This document shows, piece after piece, positions 13,116 through 59,601 of a stretch of 59,601 nt of DNA. The notes under the pieces were generated by a model that saw only the letters and a program-made list of their open reading frames with translations, did not search any database and was not told where the DNA came from. Position 1 is the first letter of the stretch. Each line of letters begins with the position of its first letter. The stretch spans positions 1-59,601 of the forward strand of contig PWTK01000058.1 in NCBI GenBank assembly GCA_003563895.1, given 5' to 3'. The position numbers and the translations under genes are program-made. Source of the stretch: Syntrophomonadaceae bacterium (GTDB taxonomy: Bacteria; Bacillota; Dethiobacteria; DTU022; UBA8154).

Positions 13116-14408
13116 TCACAGCTTCAACATGACGAGCCCGGTGGCCAGTTTGGGGTAAAAAAAGGTGGATTTTTGCGGCATGCGGAATCCGCCGCGGGCC
13201 AGGTCCATGATTTTATCCAGGTGGGGCGTGTTGACATAAAACACATACCGGGCCCGGCCGCGATCCACCTCTTCTTTTGCTTCCCACTCGTCCCTCAGGT
13301 AATAGATACCCGCTTCGTCCCTCCGCTGCTCATACCCCAGTTGAAATATATGGGAAAGAACCAGCTCTTGCAGAACCAGCACGTCCAGCCGGGAAGGGAG
13401 TTCCACCTCTTTCCAGGCCTCCTCCCGGAGGGTGAGAATATATAGCTTTTTAGAAGGCGCATAAAGACCAAAGGAAACGCGGCTGCCCTCAGAGCCCTTC
13501 AAGTGACCCCGCAGGGTGGAAAGCAGTTCCTCTTCGCTCCGGGGTTCGGGAAATTCCTGAAGCAGAAAATAGCGCCCGAGCTGCTCCAGCAATTCTGGGG
13601 CTTCGACCCCGCTGCAGGCGATGAGCCGGTGCGTCGGCAGGGCGAGCAGGCCCTCGTCATACACATTGACCAGCGCCATCAGCGTCACGCCGTACCGCTC
13701 TGGGTCCGCCCCCTCCCTCATTTTCTCCAGGTAAAACTCCAGCGCAGTTTCGTAGCGGTGGTGCCCGTCGGCAATAAAAATGGTTCTATCCTGAAAAAAC
13801 CGGGTGACTTCTTCCACAAAATCCCTGTCGGCTACCGCCCAGATACGGTGCCGCTGGTTTTCTTCGTCCACAAAATCGATGTCCGGGGCGGCCTTTTTAA
13901 AGGACTCGCCATATTTTTCCACCATCAGCTCCCTGTCCCGGTAGAGGCCGAAAATGGGGCTGATGTTCGCTTCGCAGTGGCGCAGCATTTCCAATCGATC
14001 GGCCTTGGGTTTGCTCATGGTCTCCTCATGGGGGATGACCTCTCCTTTTTCAAAGGGAGAGAGGCCGACACCGCAGTAAATGCCTCTGCGCACATAATTC
14101 CTTCCTTCAAACTGAAAGGCCAGTTCATAGAGATAGACGGCGGGTTTTTCTTCGCAAAACAACACCCCTTTTTGCAGCCATTCCCGGAGCGTGCGCGCGG
14201 CTCGCGTATACTTGTTTTGCCCGGGTCTGTCCTCCTGGAAAGAGGCGGGATATTCCAGCCTGATCACGTTATACCTGCTTTTTTTGTACAGCTCCTCCTG
14301 TTTTTGCGGTGTAATCACGTCGTAAGGCGGGGTAATGAGTTTTGCATAATCGGCGCCGGCAGCGACTTCGGAAAAACGCATTCCCCTGATCGGACACACT
14401 CTCGCCAT
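13116..14408 (-). CDS. DUF1015 family protein (COG4198), function unknown
   Basis: 430 aa. The N-terminal IRGMRF...ITPPYDVI and FIADGHHRYETAL motifs are typical of DUF1015. Confidence 0.7.
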   Translation of the reverse strand: MARVCPIRGMRFSEVAAGADYAKLITPPYDVITPQKQEELYKKSRYNVIRLEYPASFQEDRPGQNKYTRAARTLREWLQKGVLFCEEKPAVYLYELAFQFEGRNYVRRGIYCGVGLSPFEKGEVIPHEETMSKPKADRLEMLRHCEANISPIFGLYRDRELMVEKYGESFKKAAPDIDFVDEENQRHRIWAVADRDFVEEVTRFFQDRTIFIADGHHRYETALEFYLEKMREGADPERYGVTLMALVNVYDEGLLALPTHRLIACSGVEAPELLEQLGRYFLLQEFPEPRSEEELLSTLRGHLKGSEGSRVSFGLYAPSKKLYILTLREEAWKEVELPSRLDVLVLQELVLSHIFQLGYEQRRDEAGIYYLRDEWEAKEEVDRGRARYVFYVNTPHLDKIMDLARGGFRMPQKSTFFYPKLATGLVMLKL

Positions 14409-17825: not shown

Positions 17826-17949
17826 ATCGGCTCAGACCTCCTCCCAGCCTGGACAGGTCTCCTGTCAATAAAATCTCGCGGCGGCGAAATAAAGCGCTGT
17901 TGAAGCACGGGGAATCCGCCAAACCGGCGAGGTGGCCTCACCGGGAAGG

Positions 17950-18037
17950 CTACCCTGAAAATGCAACTCCGCCGCCATGAATTTCCTGTTTGAAAGGGAA
18001 CCTTTTCGTCCTTCAGATGGTGAAGCGAAGCTTCATG
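17950..18037 (-). repeat. R1 element, singleton copy a
   Basis: The plus strand reads CTACCCTGAAAAT-core-TTTTCGTCCTTCAGATGGT-GAAGCGAAGCTTC-ATG. It lies between the dnaE stop and the pyk start, in the same orientation relative to its genes as copies b and c. Confidence 0.7.
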
Positions 18038-18042
18038 ACGGT

Positions 18043-18172
18043 CTCTTTTAAATTTAAGTGTTGATACTATTTGGAATTTAGGTGCTGTGTCCTCGAACAA
18101 GAAAATGGAAAACGAAATGAGATAAGCAATAAAGGGTATTTAAAGCTATCAACATTGCTTTTTAAAAGAGCC
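18043..18172. repeat. R2 element copy 1: 130-bp AT-rich MITE-like element with ~24-bp imperfect terminal inverted repeats
   Basis: About 92% identical to 33711-33842. The ends CTCTTTTAAATTTAAGTGTTGATA and TATCAACATTGCTTTTTAAAAGAG are inverted repeats. Confidence 0.6.
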
Positions 18173-27423: not shown

Positions 27424-27751
27424 GGTATCCTTCCTCCTTCTTTGGTTTGGTGCCGCCTGAAAAGCCTTCGGCAGGATCTTTCCGGATAAGGTAGGATTCT
27501 CTCCCGGCGGACCAAATTCCTCCCGCAGCCTGCGCCGGCAGGCCCGGGGGTCCCGCAGGCGTCCGCGTTAATTAATGGAACTGGTAGTAACTGTTGATAT
27601 GGAAGTACATTTCAAGCCCTCTCGGCTATCTCTTAGCCTTGAATCTTTTTCCGGGCTTGTATGCTTACTAAAAACACCACCCTTAAATTGACAATCGGAC
27701 CGGAGTAAGCAGCCGCGTCCTTGTTTGCCCATTTCCCGGCCTTGCGCCGCT

Positions 27752-27793
27752 TTTAAAAAACAAAGGATGCCGCCCCTTTGGAGGAAGCATCCT
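27752..27793 (-). terminator. intrinsic terminator downstream of the Sdh/Frd-like operon and R1 copy b
   Basis: The minus strand reads AGGAUGC-16 nt-GCAUCCU followed by UUGUUUUUU. Confidence 0.55.
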
Positions 27794-27989
27794 CTTGTAT
27801 CGTTCGGTTGAAGTCCCGCCTCTTTCGGGAAGGCCGCCCCCGGCAGCCGTCAGGGCGCGGATGTTTTCCGTTGAACCGGCTAATCTTCACGGGCCCTGCA
27901 AATCTGGCAAGAGATTTTTACAGAGAATGAACTCTGCCAATGCCCCTGGCCTGTCCGGAATCCAGGGGAAGCCGGTTTTGCTCCAGGCC

Positions 27990-28078
27990 CTACCCTGAAA
28001 ATGCAACTCCACCGCTATGAGTTTCCTGTTTGAAAGGGAACATTTTCGTCCTCCTGATGGTGAGGCGAAGCTTCATGG
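27990..28078 (-). repeat. R1 element, singleton copy b
   Basis: The plus strand reads CTACCCTGAAAAT-core-TTTTCGTCCTCCTGATGGT-GAGGCGAAGCTTC-ATGG. It lies between the stop of the flavoprotein gene (28165) and the terminator at 27752-27793. Confidence 0.7.
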
Positions 28079-28164
28079 ATGTCTCTTTTAGGGATGTGAG
28101 GAGGCGGGATCCATACCCGCGGGTTTTTTGCAACGCCTGCGGACGCTGCTGAGCAAACGGCCGA

Positions 28165-33710: not shown

Positions 33711-33842
33711 CTCTTTTAAATTTAAGTGTTGATATTGTTTGGAATTTAGGTGCTGTGTCCTCGAACAAGAAAATGGAAAACGATATGAGGTAAGCAATAA
33801 AGGATATTTAAAGCTATCAACAATGCTGGTAAAAAAAGAGCC
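33711..33842. repeat. R2 element copy 2
   Basis: About 92% identical to 18043-18172, in the same orientation on the plus strand. It is not accompanied by R1 here. Confidence 0.6.
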
Positions 33843-34377
33843 TTTTAAAAAGAAACCCTGTCCCAATGCTGTTCCTTCAATATCATCGCATTGCTCAGCC
33901 GGACCAGGGCAAAACCAAGAGAACCTTGCCGCCCGGCACGGTGGAAGCGGCCCGGTATTTTTTTCTCTGTTCCGGCTTTGTTCCGACCTTCCTTTTATTA
34001 ATTAATTTGATTTAAAATAAAAAAATCCTGCCGCAAAACGCAAAAAAACGAAAAATACTGTTATAAAATTTACATCTATTCTAATATTTAAATGGTTTCT
34101 TGGTCGCCCAGGGCTTTCCCCTCACCATGGACGGCGCCGGGAAGTATCCGAACGCAGAAGTGCGGCGGTTTTTTCATTTGGGCATTCCCTTCACCTGGGC
34201 GAGGGAACTGCGCAGGGAGGCGGCGGCATGGCTTTTCCGGTCACGAGGTGGCGGCATGGCTTTTCCGGTCACCTGGATTTTTTTCTTCACCGCAGACCGG
34301 TTTGGGTGCAGAAAAACAATGTGCCTGTTTTATGGGATAGGGCTGTTTTTTCCCTTTGGCCGTTGGGGACGGCCGGT

Positions 34378-44015: not shown

Positions 44016-44573
44016 TTAGAACTCGATCCCTTTCTGCGCTTTGACGCCCGACATATAATGGTGCTTGACTTCCTTAACTTCGCTGACCAGGTCGGCCATT
44101 TCCAAAAATTCGGGAGGGGCGTCCCTTCCGGTTAGGATTAATGTCACCTCGGGTCTCTTGTTTTTGACCAGGTCCAGGACATCCCTGAACGAAACGAGAT
44201 TGAAGCTGACCGCGACATTAATTTCATCCAGGACGACGAGGTCGCAATCTCCCTCCAGGGCGGCCTTCCTGGCCCTGGCCAGCCCCTCCGCAGCGAGGCG
44301 GAGGTCCTCCTCGCCGGGATTGTCCGGGTCGACAAATTTCCCCGTGCCGGCTTTGATCACCTCAAAATCCGGCAGATACGAGGCTGCCTTGGCTTCTCCG
44401 TAATCCCTGCCCTTCATGAAATTGATCACCAGCACTTTGAATCCATGGCCTGCAGCCCGAAAAGCCTGCCCCAGGGCGGCGGTCGTTTTGCCTTTACCGT
44501 CCCCCGTATAGACCATGATCAGCCCTCTTTTTTCCTTCACCGCTCGATCCCACCCCTGGTACATTTTTTTCAT
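44016..44573 (-). CDS. cobO: cob(I)yrinic acid a,c-diamide / cob(I)alamin adenosyltransferase (CobA/CobO/BtuR type)
   Basis: VYTGDGKGKTTAALGQAFRAAGHG and LVVLDEINVA motifs. The start is ambiguous: ATG-44573, or ATG about 20 codons later behind AAGAGGG. Confidence 0.85.
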   Translation of the reverse strand: MKKMYQGWDRAVKEKRGLIMVYTGDGKGKTTAALGQAFRAAGHGFKVLVINFMKGRDYGEAKAASYLPDFEVIKAGTGKFVDPDNPGEEDLRLAAEGLARARKAALEGDCDLVVLDEINVAVSFNLVSFRDVLDLVKNKRPEVTLILTGRDAPPEFLEMADLVSEVKEVKHHYMSGVKAQKGIEF

Positions 44574-44576
44574 GAA

Positions 44577-44725
44577 TATCAACTAAACTCAGGGAATTCT
44601 TGTTGAATGGGCCCCCAAATACAGCTTTTTAGCAGATCAAGACCTTTTTGTAAGTGTAACCTTTTAAAACCTCTTTTTTTGCGACGCTTCTTTCATTGTC
44701 ATCCTGAGCAAACCCGATAGTCTGA
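44577..44725. repeat. R3 intergenic repeat, copy 1 (~149 bp)
   Basis: About 90% identical to 46165-46312. It begins TATCAACTAAACTCAGGGAATTCTTGTTGA and ends CATCCTGAGCAAACCCGATAGTCTGA. It abuts the cobO start. Confidence 0.65.
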
Positions 44726-44987
44726 TTTTTTTTTACGCATCTGCTGCAGCGGCCCGTTTTCAGGCAGAACACCCCTGCTGCGGCAGCTGGAGAGGAATGA
44801 AAATATCCCGGCGCTTACCAGGCGCACCTTTCAGGCATCAGCCCGGCTTTCGTGCCAGTTCGTTAAAACTTTTCCCCGCCTCTTGCCTATATCATAACTC
44901 ATAAACCGGTCATTTAGCAATATCGCTCACTGCTCAACCGGGAAGGCCGCCGCAAGGCGGGCCCTCCCGGTTGGTCCACGCCTTCCC

Positions 44988-46127: not shown

Positions 46128-46164
46128 TAACTGACATCCTCCCTCTCGAAATTATTTACATGAT

Positions 46165-46312
46165 TATCAACTTAACTCAGGGAATTCTTGTTGAGTGGCC
46201 CCCAAAATACAGCTTTTTAGCAGATCAAAGCCTTTTTGTAAGTGTGACCTTTTAAAACCTCTTTTTTGCAGGGCTTTTTTCATTGTCATCCTGAGCAAAC
46301 CCGATAGTCTGA
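46165..46312. repeat. R3 intergenic repeat, copy 2 (~148 bp)
   Basis: See copy 1. It lies between ACAD paralog 2 (stop 46344) and ACAD paralog 1 (start 46127). Confidence 0.65.
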
Positions 46313-46343
46313 ATTATTTATTGGAAAAAGTTTTTGTTCTTTA

Positions 46344-49969: not shown

Positions 49970-50276
49970 ACCAGCGCCTCCTTTAGCCATATTTTACAAA
50001 ATCACAAAAAAAGCGAAAAAGCAAAAAACAAGCCCCGCTATCGCAGCCTGAACTTTTTTGACAACCCTTATCACCGGCAGCATCTTACCCGGTTAAGGCA
50101 CCCAGGTCATTTGCCTGAAAACAAGCGGGAAAGTGAATGTTGTCACTTTGTTGCAGCCCATGATAGTCAAAAGTCAAAGAAAAGACTCGAAGGGTGGAAG
50201 AGAGGAATTATTATGGATTGAATTATTACCATTATTAGATTATTTCTATATTGCCGGGCAAAACCCTTCCTCCGGC

Positions 50277-50310
50277 GATAAATAAAAATGCCCCGGGGAC
50301 AGCCCGGGGC
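50277..50310 (-). terminator. intrinsic terminator downstream of ACAD paralog 3 and the R1 array
   Basis: The minus strand reads GCCCCGGG-CUGUC-CCCGGGGC followed by AUUUUUAUUUAU. Confidence 0.6.
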
Positions 50311-50450
50311 AAAGGGAAAATACCGTGTGACAGAAAGGCAGCGAACATTTTGAAGAAAGCTATCAAAAGGGGGCATCAAGACGCCTTGCGGCGGAATGAC
50401 GCGGCAGCGAAAAGGCCGCTCAGGCCGCCTCCTTGTCCTTCCTTTCAATG

Positions 50451-50743
50451 CTACTTTGAAAATAAAACAATGGCGCACGAAAGTTCGCTGCCAAACGGCA
50501 ACCTAATTTTCATCCTTCTGATGGTGCCGCCACCGCAGAGGGCGGCATGGCTGTCTACTTTGAAAATAGAACATGTCGCTCAAAGGTCCGTCGCCCAAAA
50601 GTAATCGATTTTCATCCTTCTGATGATGCCCCCGTTGTGCGGGGGCATGGGGGTCTACCCTGAAAATGCAACTCCGCCGCTATGAATTTCCTTTTTGAAA
50701 AGGAACATTTTCGTCCTTCTGATGGTAAAGCGAAGCTTCATGG
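50451..50743 (-). repeat. R1 tandem array c (3 units: 50451-50552, 50553-50652, 50653-50743)
   Basis: Each unit on the plus strand is (G)TCTAC-YYTGAAAAT / 35-42-nt core / ATTTTCRTCCTTCTGATGRT / hairpin / CATGG. The hairpin stems are GCCGCC/GGCGGC, GCCCCCG/CGGGGGC and AAGC/GCTT. The array lies between the ACAD3 stop (50759) and the terminator. Confidence 0.8.
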
Positions 50744-50758
50744 ATGTTTCTGCCGGAT

Positions 50759-51922
50759 TTACGTCCTCAGGAGTTCCCTGGCAATAATCAGGCGGCGGAT
50801 CTCCGAGGTGCCGGCCCCAATCTCCCAGAGCTTGGCATCCCGCAAATGCCTCTGGATGGGGTATTCCAGCGAATAACCGTAGCCACCGAAGATCTGCACG
50901 CCGTCCAGGCAAACCTGGGTGCAGGATTCAGAAGCGTTCAAAATGGCGGCGGCGGCTATCTTGTCCAGGTCGGTGCCTTTTCCTCCGCGCTTATCGGTAA
51001 GGCCGTCCACATACCAGGCCGCGTAGTAGGTCAGCCACTTGGCCCGTTCATAGTGGCAGTACATATCGGCCAGCTTCTGCTGGATAATCTGGAATTCACC
51101 AATGGGCCTGCCAAATTGGTACCTTTCCCTGGCATATTTTACGCTGAGATCCATGGCTGCCCGCATGGTGCCCAGGGCACAGGCGGAAAGGACGATCCTT
51201 TCCGTGCAGAGCCCCGAGGTCAAAACATGGACGCCCTTGTTTTCTTCTCCAACCATCTGGCTCGCCGGGACCCTCATGTCGTTAAAGGCTAGCTCGCCTG
51301 TGGGTGATCCCCGCATGCCGAACTTGTCGATCTTGTTGCAGCTGTACCCCGGGGTGTCCGTCTCCACAACAAAGGCGCTGATCCCCCTGGATCCTTTTTC
51401 GGGATCGGTTTTGGCATAAAACAACAGGAGCTGCCCCACCGGCGCATTGGTGATAAAAGTTTTGCTGCCGTTAACCACGTATTCGTCCCCGTCTTTGACC
51501 GCCGTCGTCCGCATGGCCATGGCGTCGGAACCCGCATCGGGCTCCGTGATGCCCAGGCAGCCGATCATATCGCCGCTCACGAGCTTGGGGAGGTATTTAT
51601 CTTTTATCTCCTTCGAAGCATTGCTCTGGATGTTGTCCGCACAGAGGATGAGGTGCGCCCCCCAGGTCATGGACAGGGCTGAAGAGACCCGGCCCAGGTT
51701 TTCAGCCACGAGGCAGGCCTCGGTGTAACCCAGTCCCGCACCTTCGTATTCCTCGTCGATGGTGATGCCGTTCAGGTCCAGCTTGGCCGTTTCTTTGAAA
51801 AACCCCTCCGGAAACTTGTCCTCCTCGTCGACTTCCTGCATCTTCGGCTCGAGCCAATTAACGGCCCACTTGTACGTCGTTTCGGCCAGCATCTCCTGTT
51901 CCTGGTTGAACTTGAAATCCAT
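50759..51922 (-). CDS. acyl-CoA dehydrogenase, paralog 3 (more divergent)
   Basis: 387 aa with GITEPDAGSD and a C-terminal IGAGTSEIRRLIIAREL. Confidence 0.9.
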   Translation of the reverse strand: MDFKFNQEQEMLAETTYKWAVNWLEPKMQEVDEEDKFPEGFFKETAKLDLNGITIDEEYEGAGLGYTEACLVAENLGRVSSALSMTWGAHLILCADNIQSNASKEIKDKYLPKLVSGDMIGCLGITEPDAGSDAMAMRTTAVKDGDEYVVNGSKTFITNAPVGQLLLFYAKTDPEKGSRGISAFVVETDTPGYSCNKIDKFGMRGSPTGELAFNDMRVPASQMVGEENKGVHVLTSGLCTERIVLSACALGTMRAAMDLSVKYARERYQFGRPIGEFQIIQQKLADMYCHYERAKWLTYYAAWYVDGLTDKRGGKGTDLDKIAAAAILNASESCTQVCLDGVQIFGGYGYSLEYPIQRHLRDAKLWEIGAGTSEIRRLIIARELLRT

Positions 51923-52227
51923 GTCGCATCTTGCTCCTTTCGCCCAAGGATAGCTAACGTGTTACTGTTCGAGGGCAACATATGGTTGATTCCACTGCAA
52001 AAAAGCACTTTTTCATCCGTTGCATCATGAAAGAAAGTAAAGTAAAAGCTTTGACTTACGGTCGGAAAATAGATGCTGATATCAAACATGGTGCATTTAT
52101 AACTGCTCAGCAATTATTTTTTTATGCAACACGCCGCAAAGTAGGGGGACGGTTCTTTCGCTTTCCCATTTGGTCCTGCGCTTTGCTCCGGAAGCGCCAG
52201 AACCGTGCCTACAGCTTTGCTTACGAG

Positions 52228-52307
52228 TAGCCCTGAGCAGTAACGTGCATTTTTATCCCTATTATCCCCATGGCACCCCCGTATTGCGGGGCCGTGGGGG
52301 TCTACCC
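52228..52307 (-). repeat. degenerate/short R1-like unit
   Basis: TAGCCCTGAGCAG...TTTTTATCCCTATTATCCCCATGGCACCCCCGTATTGCGGGGCCGTGGGGGTCTACCC retains the hairpin plus the GGGGGTCTACCC junction seen at 50641-50660. Confidence 0.45.
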
Positions 52308-52407
52308 AGCAATCGAGCTTTTGCAGGAGAATCATGGTTTCATGATCTACAAGGCCAACGAAAAAAACACAAGAGCGGGGGGGCCTCTTCAGGCACCCCC
52401 CGTCTCA

Positions 52408-59133: not shown

Positions 59134-59288
59134 CTTTCTACCCCCTCCCGGCTGCATAACACCACTGCTGCAGCCCTATCCGGATTTTTTATGAATTTTT
59201 CTCTTGCCCGGGAACCGTGAGCAGGGATTATGCCGGCAACCGCGGTCGGGGAACGCGCCAAATCTTTTCCCCGCAAGAGACCTCCGTA

Positions 59289-59601
59289 GAAGCTTCACCA
59301 TCAGAAAGATGAAAATGGCCATGCAGTATTTTCAGGGTAGACCCTCATGCCCCCGCATAAGTGGGGCACCTTTGTTAAATAAGAAGGTGAAGAGTCTTGT
59401 TAACTCATGCCCCTGCATAACGGGGGCACCATCAGAAGGAGGAAAATAGGTTGCTATTACCAGCGAACCTTTGTGTGTATTTGTTCTATTTTCAAAGTAG
59501 ACCCCATGCCCCCGCACAACGGGGGCACCATCAGAAAGAGGAAAATCGATTACTGTTTGGCGACGGACCTTTGAGCGACATGTTCTATTTTCAAAGTAGA
59601 C
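59289..59601 (+). repeat. R1 tandem array d (at least 4 units, opposite orientation to arrays a-c, truncated by the window end)
   Basis: There is a short unit at 59289-59342 and a degenerate unit at 59343-59403, followed by two exact 99-nt units at 59404-59502 and 59503-59601. The last two each read hairpin-CACCATCAGAARGAGGAAAAT-core-ATTTTCAAAGTAGAC. Confidence 0.75.

Follow-up and report, generated by a model that had tools for sequence, protein, structure and literature searches.

A new family of small composite two-hairpin repeats in Dethiobacteria and Paenibacillus

Contig PWTK01000058.1 of a Syntrophomonadaceae bacterium (assembly GCA_003563895.1; all 59,601 nt of it, here called the window) carries a tandem array of three units of about 100 nt, each with two potential hairpins, next to the stop codon of an acyl-CoA dehydrogenase (ACAD) gene. 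A first-pass annotation of the sequence matched the array to no RNA family and proposed an mRNA-stabilizing element, a processed small RNA (sRNA) array or a hairpin-dependent mobile element. The locus raises the question of whether such units act as RNA or are DNA elements that are merely transcribed with their neighbors. The family is new, although it falls within the already known class of small composite interspersed repeats, and its recognition machinery was not found. On balance we lean towards reading it as uncatalogued, small, composite, non-autonomous two-hairpin DNA repeats that are mobile and selfish and are carried in transcripts, and not as a dedicated regulatory RNA.

Repeat units in the window and in other taxa

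The three focal units (U1, U2 and U3; Table 1) lie head to tail and share one layout on the plus strand: (G)TCTAC-YYTGAAAAT, a core of 40–43 nt, ATTTTC(A/G)TCCTTCTGATG(G/A)T, a hairpin and CATGG, after which the GTCTAC of the next unit begins. An AT-rich helix (P1) surrounds the core, and the base of the 3' hairpin (P3) has TG at its start (TA in U3) and CA at its end, with TGG(N) after it. U3 terminates in GTTTCT, 8 nt short of the ACAD stop codon.

Searches with nhmmer, a covariance model, a hairpin-anchored scan and a direct-repeat scan together give eight intact units, one truncated and one degenerate (~10 in all) at five loci in the window. The five loci named in the first-pass annotation are thus recovered, but not its count of at least 12 units. 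In the window a conserved 18-mer is found eight times, whereas shuffles lead one to expect 0.08, and the 14-mer at the 5' end of the unit ten times against 0.96 expected; a further match at 13785 lies inside a coding sequence and is due to chance. The units are well above chance and are real repeat copies, and for the three focal ones this agrees with the sequence layout. The degenerate unit, between an acyl-CoA synthetase stop and an ACAD start, was also picked up by the direct-repeat scan (family D14, 84% identical over 37 nt), and the array at 59.3–59.6 kb is cut by the end of the window. In the spacer downstream of gatB (34217-34272) there is a 28-nt tandem duplication (GAGGCGGCGGCATGGCTTTTCCGGTCAC twice, in perfect register and 96% identical), which has the 12-nt string GGCGGCATGGCT in common with U1, probably by chance.

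Homologous units are present elsewhere. A covariance model (R1) built only from units of Paenibacillus and of locus L055 (L numbers designate loci and contigs outside the window), with the window units excluded, finds all eight intact window units at E values from 3.7e-13 to 1.2e-6, the next match being at E 0.05. The families are therefore homologous and not merely alike in motif, and, as judged from these sequences, the family is common to the window lineage, a second Dethiobacteria-like lineage and Paenibacillus ginsengihumi. The covariance-model search of relatives suggested in the first-pass annotation thus extends the family across taxa, and restriction of the copies to the window, which the annotation had counted as a possible weakness, does not hold, as they recur in independent assemblies and in other taxa.

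When one genome per species was scanned for the exact pattern, the matches were for the most part single ones, evidently due to chance; P. ginsengihumi DSM 21568, with eight loci, is the exception. Its tandem units of 73–77 nt have in common GTCTATCTTGAAAAT, ATTTTCATCCTTCTGATGGTG, a TGCYGC...GCRGCA hairpin and CATGGGC. In a second Paenibacillus subtype, which R1 also recognizes, the first helix is longer, the linker is ACCGCAGGTG and the stem TGACGA...TCGTCA precedes TAGGC. A metagenome scan adds Ga0207865 contigs from a close Paenibacillus relative, the single unit in Ga0334722 (L055), a locus of the window lineage (L058) and the MTKW lineage, a 47%-GC organism on MTKW01 contigs whose NrdD is closest to Dethiobacteria-type proteins. 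The pyruvate kinase of the window itself shares 67% identity with proteins of Dethiobacter and with others that bear the name Dethiobacteria. Many Paenibacillus arrays are preceded by a conserved repeat of ~200 nt (L010 1160-1385, L018 6900-7056, L029 7100-7324, and also L046, L047, L050 and L051) in which short palindromes are abundant (TTGTGCAACAA, GTTGCACTTT.TACAAC, TTGTTGTACAAAATACAACA), which suggests that these arrays form part of larger mosaics of several repeat families.

Independent assemblies of the window population carry the family as well (L001-L004, L058, L072 and L073). Proteins identical to the purN, ACAD and oxidoreductase products of the window are encoded on short contigs from SRR490155, JGI 3300000362 and the metagenome-assembled genome (MAG) GCA_003567515.1, and several short contigs with window-identical proteins terminate in the repeat. 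Contigs breaking at the repeat, together with five loci in 60 kb, indicate a high copy number. L073, a contig of the MAG, matches the window at 99.85% identity and has the 28.0 kb unit in place. Two of the eight differences in this 5.2-kb contig fall inside the 103-nt unit (L073 4698-4800, window 27988-28090), a rate of 1.9% in the unit against ~0.1% elsewhere, and this excess may reflect gene conversion among copies or mixing in the assembly consensus.

The element is also missing from several places. A relative with a pyk 80% identical to that of the window has a 120-nt dnaE-pyk spacer without it, and there is no copy in the 21 kb of a Dethiobacter-like genome searched or in 51 kb belonging to MTKW relatives whose NrdD is 78–84% identical. 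No match was found in plasmids (blastn against PLSDB) or phages (pattern search of IMG/VR), and when the translated array was compared with a set of 5.8 billion proteins in search of mis-called open reading frames (ORFs), one candidate shared words and none scored.

Table 1. Positions of repeat units, hairpins and associated features in the window
Feature	Position	Strand	Remarks
U1, core type A	50450..50552	+	103 nt; P1 arms TGAAAAT 50457-50463 and ATTTTCA 50506-50512; model R1 E 1.4e-10
U1 P3 hairpin, TGCCGCC/GGCGGCA	50525-50547		
U2, core type B	50553..50652	+	100 nt; 94% identical to U6 (59601-59503)
U2 P3 hairpin, TGCCCCCG-TTGTG-CGGGGGCA	50627-50647		DNA fold -11.8 kcal/mol, z -4.2
U3, core type C, final unit of focal array	50653..50751	+	99 nt; 88-90% identical to solo U4 and U5
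U3 weak P3 hairpin, T(A)AAGC-GAA-GCTTCA	50726-50740		
U4, solo, type C	17948..18042	+	Between dnaE stop and pyk start; E 1.1e-11
U5, solo, type C	27988..28085	+	E 3.7e-13; in MAG contig L073 too
U6, type B	59503..59601	-	Orientation opposite to focal array
U7, type B'	59405..59502	-	One C-A mismatch in P3
U8, truncated	59345..59404	-	GGTG-hairpin-CATGAGG module only
U9, short, terminal	59272..59344	-	12-nt core; degenerate GAAGCTTC palindrome; E 2e-11
Degenerate unit (fifth locus), ...CACCCCCGTATTGCGGGGCCGTGGGGGTCTACCCAG	~52201..52312	+	12 bits, E 0.078
ACAD gene	50759..51922	-	TAA stop 50759-50761, 8 nt from array
Intrinsic terminator	50289..50311	-	9-bp stem with 8 GC pairs, then TTTTTATTT; closes ACAD transcript beyond array

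Hairpins and the turnover of arrays

When 47 distinct units are aligned by means of the model, standard pairs make up 95.9% of cells, although the alignment was fitted to the structure and somewhat favors the pairing figures. P3 is 94.4% paired, with changes on both sides at four of its six pairs, and P1 (TGAAAAT...ATTTTCA) is 96.8% paired and nearly invariant; its one clear compensatory change, TGTAAAT/ATTTACA, comes from the MTKW lineage. None of 500 shuffles reaches any of the observed covariation measures, and pairing falls to 34–54% when the partner is slid by 1–3 columns. The multi-position covariation of the 3' hairpin and the GAAAAT/ATTTTC helix around the core, both proposed in the first-pass annotation, are borne out by these figures. 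There are at least five independent P3 stems (GCCCCCG, GCYGC, GAAGC, GCCGCC and GACGA), with loops of 3 to ~20 nt. Folded as DNA, P3 gives -11.8, -8.8, -6.1 and -1.6 kcal/mol, and P1 gives -5.6 to -7.3 kcal/mol.

Sequence conservation is concentrated between and beside the hairpins. The linker (GATGGTG) and the junction (CATRGGNGTCTAY) are strongly conserved, and retention across homologous units is limited to GATGGTG (or GGTG), the TG...CA base of the hairpin, CATRGG and GTCTAY. Internal junctions read CATGGGN-GTCTAY, and arrays end in GTCTAT(TT), GTCTAC or GTCTCT(TT). The first unit of an array starts at (N)CTAY, and the flanks before it are unrelated (GG|CTAC, CC|CTAC, TG|CTAC, TT|CTAT and CA|CTAT); at five MTKW loci the start is at GTAACTACC. 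No visible target duplication and no terminal inverted repeats were seen at the unit and array ends inspected.

The composition of the arrays does not follow their order on the genome. Neighboring units U1, U2 and U3 have a mutual identity of only 64–75%, whereas U2 is 94% identical to U6, 9 kb away and in opposite orientation, and U3 is 88–90% identical to the solo units U4 and U5 at 17.9 and 28.0 kb. Arrays are therefore assembled from dispersed subtypes and not by local duplication. One and the same two-unit composite is present at several distinct loci of the MTKW lineage. The last unit has the GAAGC hairpin in four of the five multi-unit arrays whose order was fully read (those at 50.5 kb and 59.3 kb, L054 and L057; L048 is the exception).

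Comparison of closely related loci shows units being exchanged, gained or lost. L009 (P. ginsengihumi) and L056 (a metagenomic relative) are 99–100% identical in both flanks, but differ at the third position of the array, which is taken by a 91-nt unit of type 2 in one and by a 77-nt unit of type 1 in the other; the breakpoints fall inside GTCTATC and CATAGGC. An array of four units in L018 corresponds to one of three in L065, the difference being two adjacent units, 1 nt apart in sequence, in place of one. Upstream of purN, in the same metagenome, a type C unit (L002 1-90) and a type A unit (L003 1-30) precede the same type-B unit; the two contigs may differ by a true polymorphism, or the assembly may have crossed over from one repeat copy to another. 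L064 (600-775) has two inverted units with one common GC-rich palindrome (...GATGGTGCCCCCGTTTTGTGGGGGCGCCATCAGGAGGATGAAAAC...), the sole doublet seen that resembles a REPIN. In L045 (248-803) a 556-bp low-GC insertion with a small reverse-strand ORF lies exactly after the GTCTATTT end of a unit and is absent from L007 and L066, whose flanks are 99.5% identical; this indel between L045 and L007 was rejected as a repeat event, being a low-GC gene cassette unrelated to the repeat.

Mobile DNA and its alternatives

The element can be described as a module of ~74–105 bp with an AT-rich helix around a variable core, a linker ending in GATGGTG, a second hairpin whose TG...CA base is invariant and whose stem varies freely, then CATRGG and the junction GTCTAY. 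Intergenic DNA contains such modules of different subtypes at scattered sites, and they stack head to tail at GTCTAY. We propose that arrays grow by insertion of a module beside an existing one, or by junction-mediated recombination there, and not by local duplication. Each module would end with, or insert beside, GTCTAY, such that new modules land next to old ones. Recognition would probably be of folded single-stranded DNA by a trans-acting enzyme, for which an HUH-type protein is the leading guess; the position of the hairpin ~11 nt before the module 3' end, together with a fixed short 5' boundary sequence, recalls single-strand (HUH) elements. The focal array would then simply be carried in the 3' untranslated region (UTR) of the dehydrogenase mRNA, and its Shine-Dalgarno-like purine run would be a by-product of the linker sequence. 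A more specific version, in which this is a new type of single-strand-DNA module that ends each copy in its own target GTCTAY, is moved by an undescribed (possibly HUH) enzyme and has passed horizontally between Bacilli and Dethiobacteria, is possible but doubtful.

Several observations weigh against mobility. The window genes scanned against Pfam are housekeeping and metabolic, with a few small ORFs without a match, and include no transposase or recombinase, and a crude HUH-Y1 motif scan of ~350 kb of loci found nothing. No pair of empty and filled sites that would establish an insertion target or a target-site duplication was recovered among the loci. Homologous recombination through the ~20-nt conserved junction could explain the unit swap without transposition and is a real alternative for the dynamics of arrays, though it could not give rise to new loci. 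That linker and junction are conserved across classes could be due to a function in the host instead of transposase recognition. The G-U to A-C ratio described below would also fit a folded RNA, though many of the G-U pairs are shared by descent. A replication-strand bias is suggestive only: in fragments of 5–60 kb, the unit strand read in the first-pass annotation favors the C-rich strand by 14:3 when judged by local GC skew and by 11:6 when judged by the coding-strand majority, and this is confounded with the direction of transcription.

The genes flanking all five window loci are on the minus strand and include dnaE and pyk at 17.9 kb, a FAD-binding oxidoreductase and a family III CoA-transferase at 28.0 kb, and ACAD and thiolase genes at the focal array; purN is downstream of the 59.3 kb array, with its start ~140 nt beyond U9, and U5 sits 80 nt downstream of the oxidoreductase stop codon. 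U5 is within an unusually long gene-free spacer of 740 nt between two minus-strand genes (27424-28164), which has no Rfam match and contains a minus-strand terminator at 27761-27780 and, directly after U5, a plus-strand hairpin and T run at 28104-28120. The placement of the focal array between the ACAD stop and an intrinsic terminator, as given in the first-pass annotation, is confirmed, and the array would therefore be in the 3' UTR. From this geometry it is likely co-transcribed as the predicted ACAD 3' UTR, being read as the reverse complement of the strand on which the units were first described, and its hairpins may incidentally affect the decay of the ACAD mRNA.

Selection of the hairpins as RNA, in cis or in trans, whether as a 3'-UTR stabilizer, a processed sRNA array or a protein sponge, is nonetheless unlikely. 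It would account for their covariation, for the position of the focal array and for the own-strand hairpin and T run that follow U5, and the linker keeps its primary sequence from class to class; however, units occur in both orientations relative to the flanking genes, within and across genomes (~9 non-redundant loci sense and ~10 antisense by our own ORF calls, with both present in Paenibacillus as well as in the window lineage). On the strand read in the first-pass annotation there are 31 G-U pairs to 8 A-C mismatches, but the G-U pairs come mostly from a few variants common by descent and the A-C cases are singletons, and the excess is therefore weak evidence that this strand is the one that may fold. 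Whole units of ~100 nt folded as RNA are no more stable than shuffles on either strand (z -1.5 to +0.35), and RNAalifold retains only four P3 pairs. Scans of three window loci show no promoter-like site in or beside the units; TTGAAA within the unit resembles a -35 hexamer, but there is no -10 at the correct spacing. The processed sRNA array of the first-pass annotation is disfavored by both the mixed orientation and the lack of promoter-like sites at these three loci. Its Shine-Dalgarno-like CAGAAGGAnGAAAAT can be found in the window units if 2 mismatches are allowed, but homologous units elsewhere do not conserve it, and in them TCCTTCT is replaced by TCATCT, CCATCT, TTCAAT or ACCGCA, which argues against a Shine-Dalgarno or anti-Shine-Dalgarno function; a CsrA-type sponge was rejected likewise, GGA being lost in many Paenibacillus and MTKW units (CATCTGATGG, CCATCTGATGG, TTCAATGATGG). 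Absence of the element from the loci checked in close relatives, and replacement of one unit type by another at the same site, also speak against a dedicated RNA. Rfam 15 yields no window match at the gathering score, and at E<=10 nothing in 50250-50800 beyond chance matches that fall far short of the threshold (such as snoRNA and Xist models); the Paenibacillus and MTKW arrays have none either, the only hit being a T-box elsewhere in L040. The statement that the array belongs to no known RNA family thus holds for Rfam 15, in the window and at related loci, and no hit that would contradict its novelty appears at gathering or permissive thresholds. Resemblance to hammerhead, C/D-box or kink-turn motifs (CUGAUGG with GAAA and UUC) was dismissed on inspection, as there is no room for stem I, A9 is G, the 3' strand lacks GA and the snoRNA matches are due to chance. 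Small peptide genes were also rejected: Paenibacillus units have a Shine-Dalgarno sequence, an ATG and 23 codons ending in an ATGA overlap, but the ATG and frame are not conserved in window or MTKW units, and the ATG derived from CATTTTC is missing from U1, U2, U4, U6, U7 and the MTKW units.

Two further explanations invoke DNA without a mobilizing enzyme. A minisatellite or variable-number tandem repeat, changing by slippage, unequal crossing-over and gene conversion between loci, is improbable to about the same degree as a structured RNA. The adjacent near-duplicates of L018 resemble simple duplication or deletion, the breakpoints of the unit swap lie inside the conserved junction and may represent short homology, and the substitutions within the L073 unit hint at conversion among copies. 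Such processes cannot seed new loci, however, and solo units are found at unrelated intergenic sites (17.9 kb, 28.0 kb, L055 and L058); the two-unit composite repeated at distinct MTKW loci, the low identity of neighbors in the window array and the presence of the family in two classes of Bacillota are similarly unexplained. Double-stranded sites for a nucleoid, replication or regulatory protein of the host, with the inverted repeats as dyad-symmetric sites, are very unlikely. Inverted repeats would covary equally if read by a dimer, and the strong conservation of linker and junction and the strictly intergenic location fit a binding site, but a sequence-reading dimer would not tolerate five or more unrelated P3 stems or loops of such different lengths, the G-T wobbles tolerated in many copies are meaningless in duplex DNA, and patchy presence among close relatives is unexpected for the site of a host factor. 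Orientation, array composition, turnover, patchiness and motif drift therefore lead us to prefer mobile DNA over a dedicated RNA.

Comparison with known repeats

In behavior the closest known elements are the BOX elements of Streptococcus pneumoniae, the comparison being by description and not by sequence. These have a composite boxA-boxB(n)-boxC structure with tandem internal modules variable in number, and are highly base-paired, co-transcribed, patchy among relatives and read as parasitic DNA (PMC3049150). The present family likewise consists of small, modular intergenic composites with variable tandem number and patchy distribution, is likewise highly base-paired and probably transcribed with its neighbors, and the GAAGC-hairpin unit closes its arrays much as boxC does. 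It differs in having no terminal inverted repeats seen and no known similarity to insertion sequence ends, in its units of ~74–105 bp with two hairpins each and a GTCTAY junction, and in its Dethiobacteria and Paenibacillus hosts.

Repetitive extragenic palindromic (REP) sequences and bacterial interspersed mosaic elements (BIMEs) are built on a palindrome of 20–50 nt with GTAG 0–2 nt before it, alternate in orientation and have an associated RAYT (PMC8266576). Common to both are high-copy intergenic palindromes with variable stems and conserved flanks, often in 3' UTRs and in mosaics; the reverse strand of the present family has an RTAG(AC) motif 5' of a GC-rich palindrome, and the inverted pair of L064 has a common palindrome. 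However, GTAGAC (window) or ATAGAC (Paenibacillus) lies 7–8 nt before the stem in place of GTAG/CGTC at 0–2 nt, and arrays are head-to-tail direct, with the pair in L064 as the only inverted one, and do not alternate. No RAYT is among the window genes scanned, and the crude motif scan of ~350 kb of loci found none. A survey of GTAG/CGTC REPs makes no mention of Paenibacillus, Dethiobacter, Firmicutes or clostridia.

The ends of IS200/IS605 elements carry similar hairpins, and the palindrome-associated transposable elements (PATEs) derived from them insert 3' of a fixed tetra- or pentanucleotide with a strong bias in orientation relative to replication. As in PATEs, the family has no terminal inverted repeats, no visible target duplication and subterminal hairpins, with a left boundary at CTAY and GTCTAY ~11 nt after the right hairpin; the possible replication-strand bias (weak by coding strand) would be a further likeness. 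The left and right hairpins of a PATE are alike, whereas P1 (TGAAAAT/ATTTTCA) is unlike P3 (TGC.../...GCA), and no cognate insertion sequence or TnpA was found. The first-pass suggestion of a REP/BIME-like or hairpin-dependent mobile element accordingly stands in a generic sense, on the basis of covariation, intergenic dispersal, patchy taxa, subtypes shared across loci and unit exchange, and is better than the sRNA or anti-Shine-Dalgarno readings; strict membership of the REP/RAYT or IS200/IS605-PATE groups does not, given the spacing of the motif, the dissimilar hairpins and the missing transposase.

Mycobacterial interspersed repetitive units (MIRUs) are co-oriented with transcription and have small ORFs overlapping the neighboring stop and start codons. 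They resemble the present family in having units of 40–100 bp in direct tandem intergenic arrays in operons, with varying copy number (as in L018 and L065), but the hosts are of different phyla, orientation here is mixed, and the Shine-Dalgarno, ATG and ORF of some Paenibacillus units are lost in most window and MTKW units. Other classes are readily set aside. The ends of a classical MITE (a miniature transposable element bounded by inverted repeats) would be inverted copies, which CTAYCYTGAAAAT... and ...CATGGNGTCTMT are not, and no flanking duplication is visible. Integron attC sites are bracketed, when folded, by complementary R'' (RYYYAAC) and R' (GTTRRRY) core sites, in place of which there is the GTCTAY junction with no same-strand RTAGAC complement in any unit. 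In a CRISPR reading the cores would be spacers, but these recur elsewhere (in U2 and U6, and in U3, U4 and U5), the repeat hairpin varies and there are no cas genes. No toxin endoribonuclease gene follows any array on either strand, as a type III (ToxI-like) toxin-antitoxin system would require after the RNA repeat and a terminator; the neighbors are ACAD, thiolase, pyk, dnaE, purN and CoA-transferase genes. In literature searches, conserved 11–12-mers matched unrelated primers only, and topic searches returned no description of the family.

Other repeats are present in the same region. A separate AT-rich repeat of 128 nt (18043-18170 and 33711-33838, copies 92% identical) has imperfect terminal inverted repeats of ~24 nt (CTCTTTTAAATTTAAGTGTTGATA ... 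TATCAACATTGCTTTTTAAAAGAG), looks like a classical MITE, and in one copy adjoins the 3' end of U4. A repeated segment of 117–170 nt (44563-44732 and 46151-46319, 84–91% identical) lies downstream of two tandem ACAD paralogues and contains TTCATTGTCATCCTGAGCAAACCCGATAGTCTGA. Repeats of the GTCATCCTGAGCG...AAGACTCTTCACTACGTTCA type also flank MTKW arrays (L048 and L054), and AAGACTCTTCAC lies within truncated U8 (59345-59404).

At least three lineages of Bacillota carry the family, which occupies about one locus per 12 kb of the window, breaks metagenome assemblies and is absent from Rfam. Near-identical linkers and junctions in Paenibacillus and in soda-lake Dethiobacteria, combined with variable stems, point to one conserved recognition machinery, and because P. 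ginsengihumi DSM 21568 is among the strains listed by culture collections, the mechanism would be testable. Arrays within the 3' UTRs and 5' leaders of central-metabolism genes may alter the expression of those genes, and a model of the family would improve MAG assembly and prevent its units from being mistaken for sRNAs or small ORFs.

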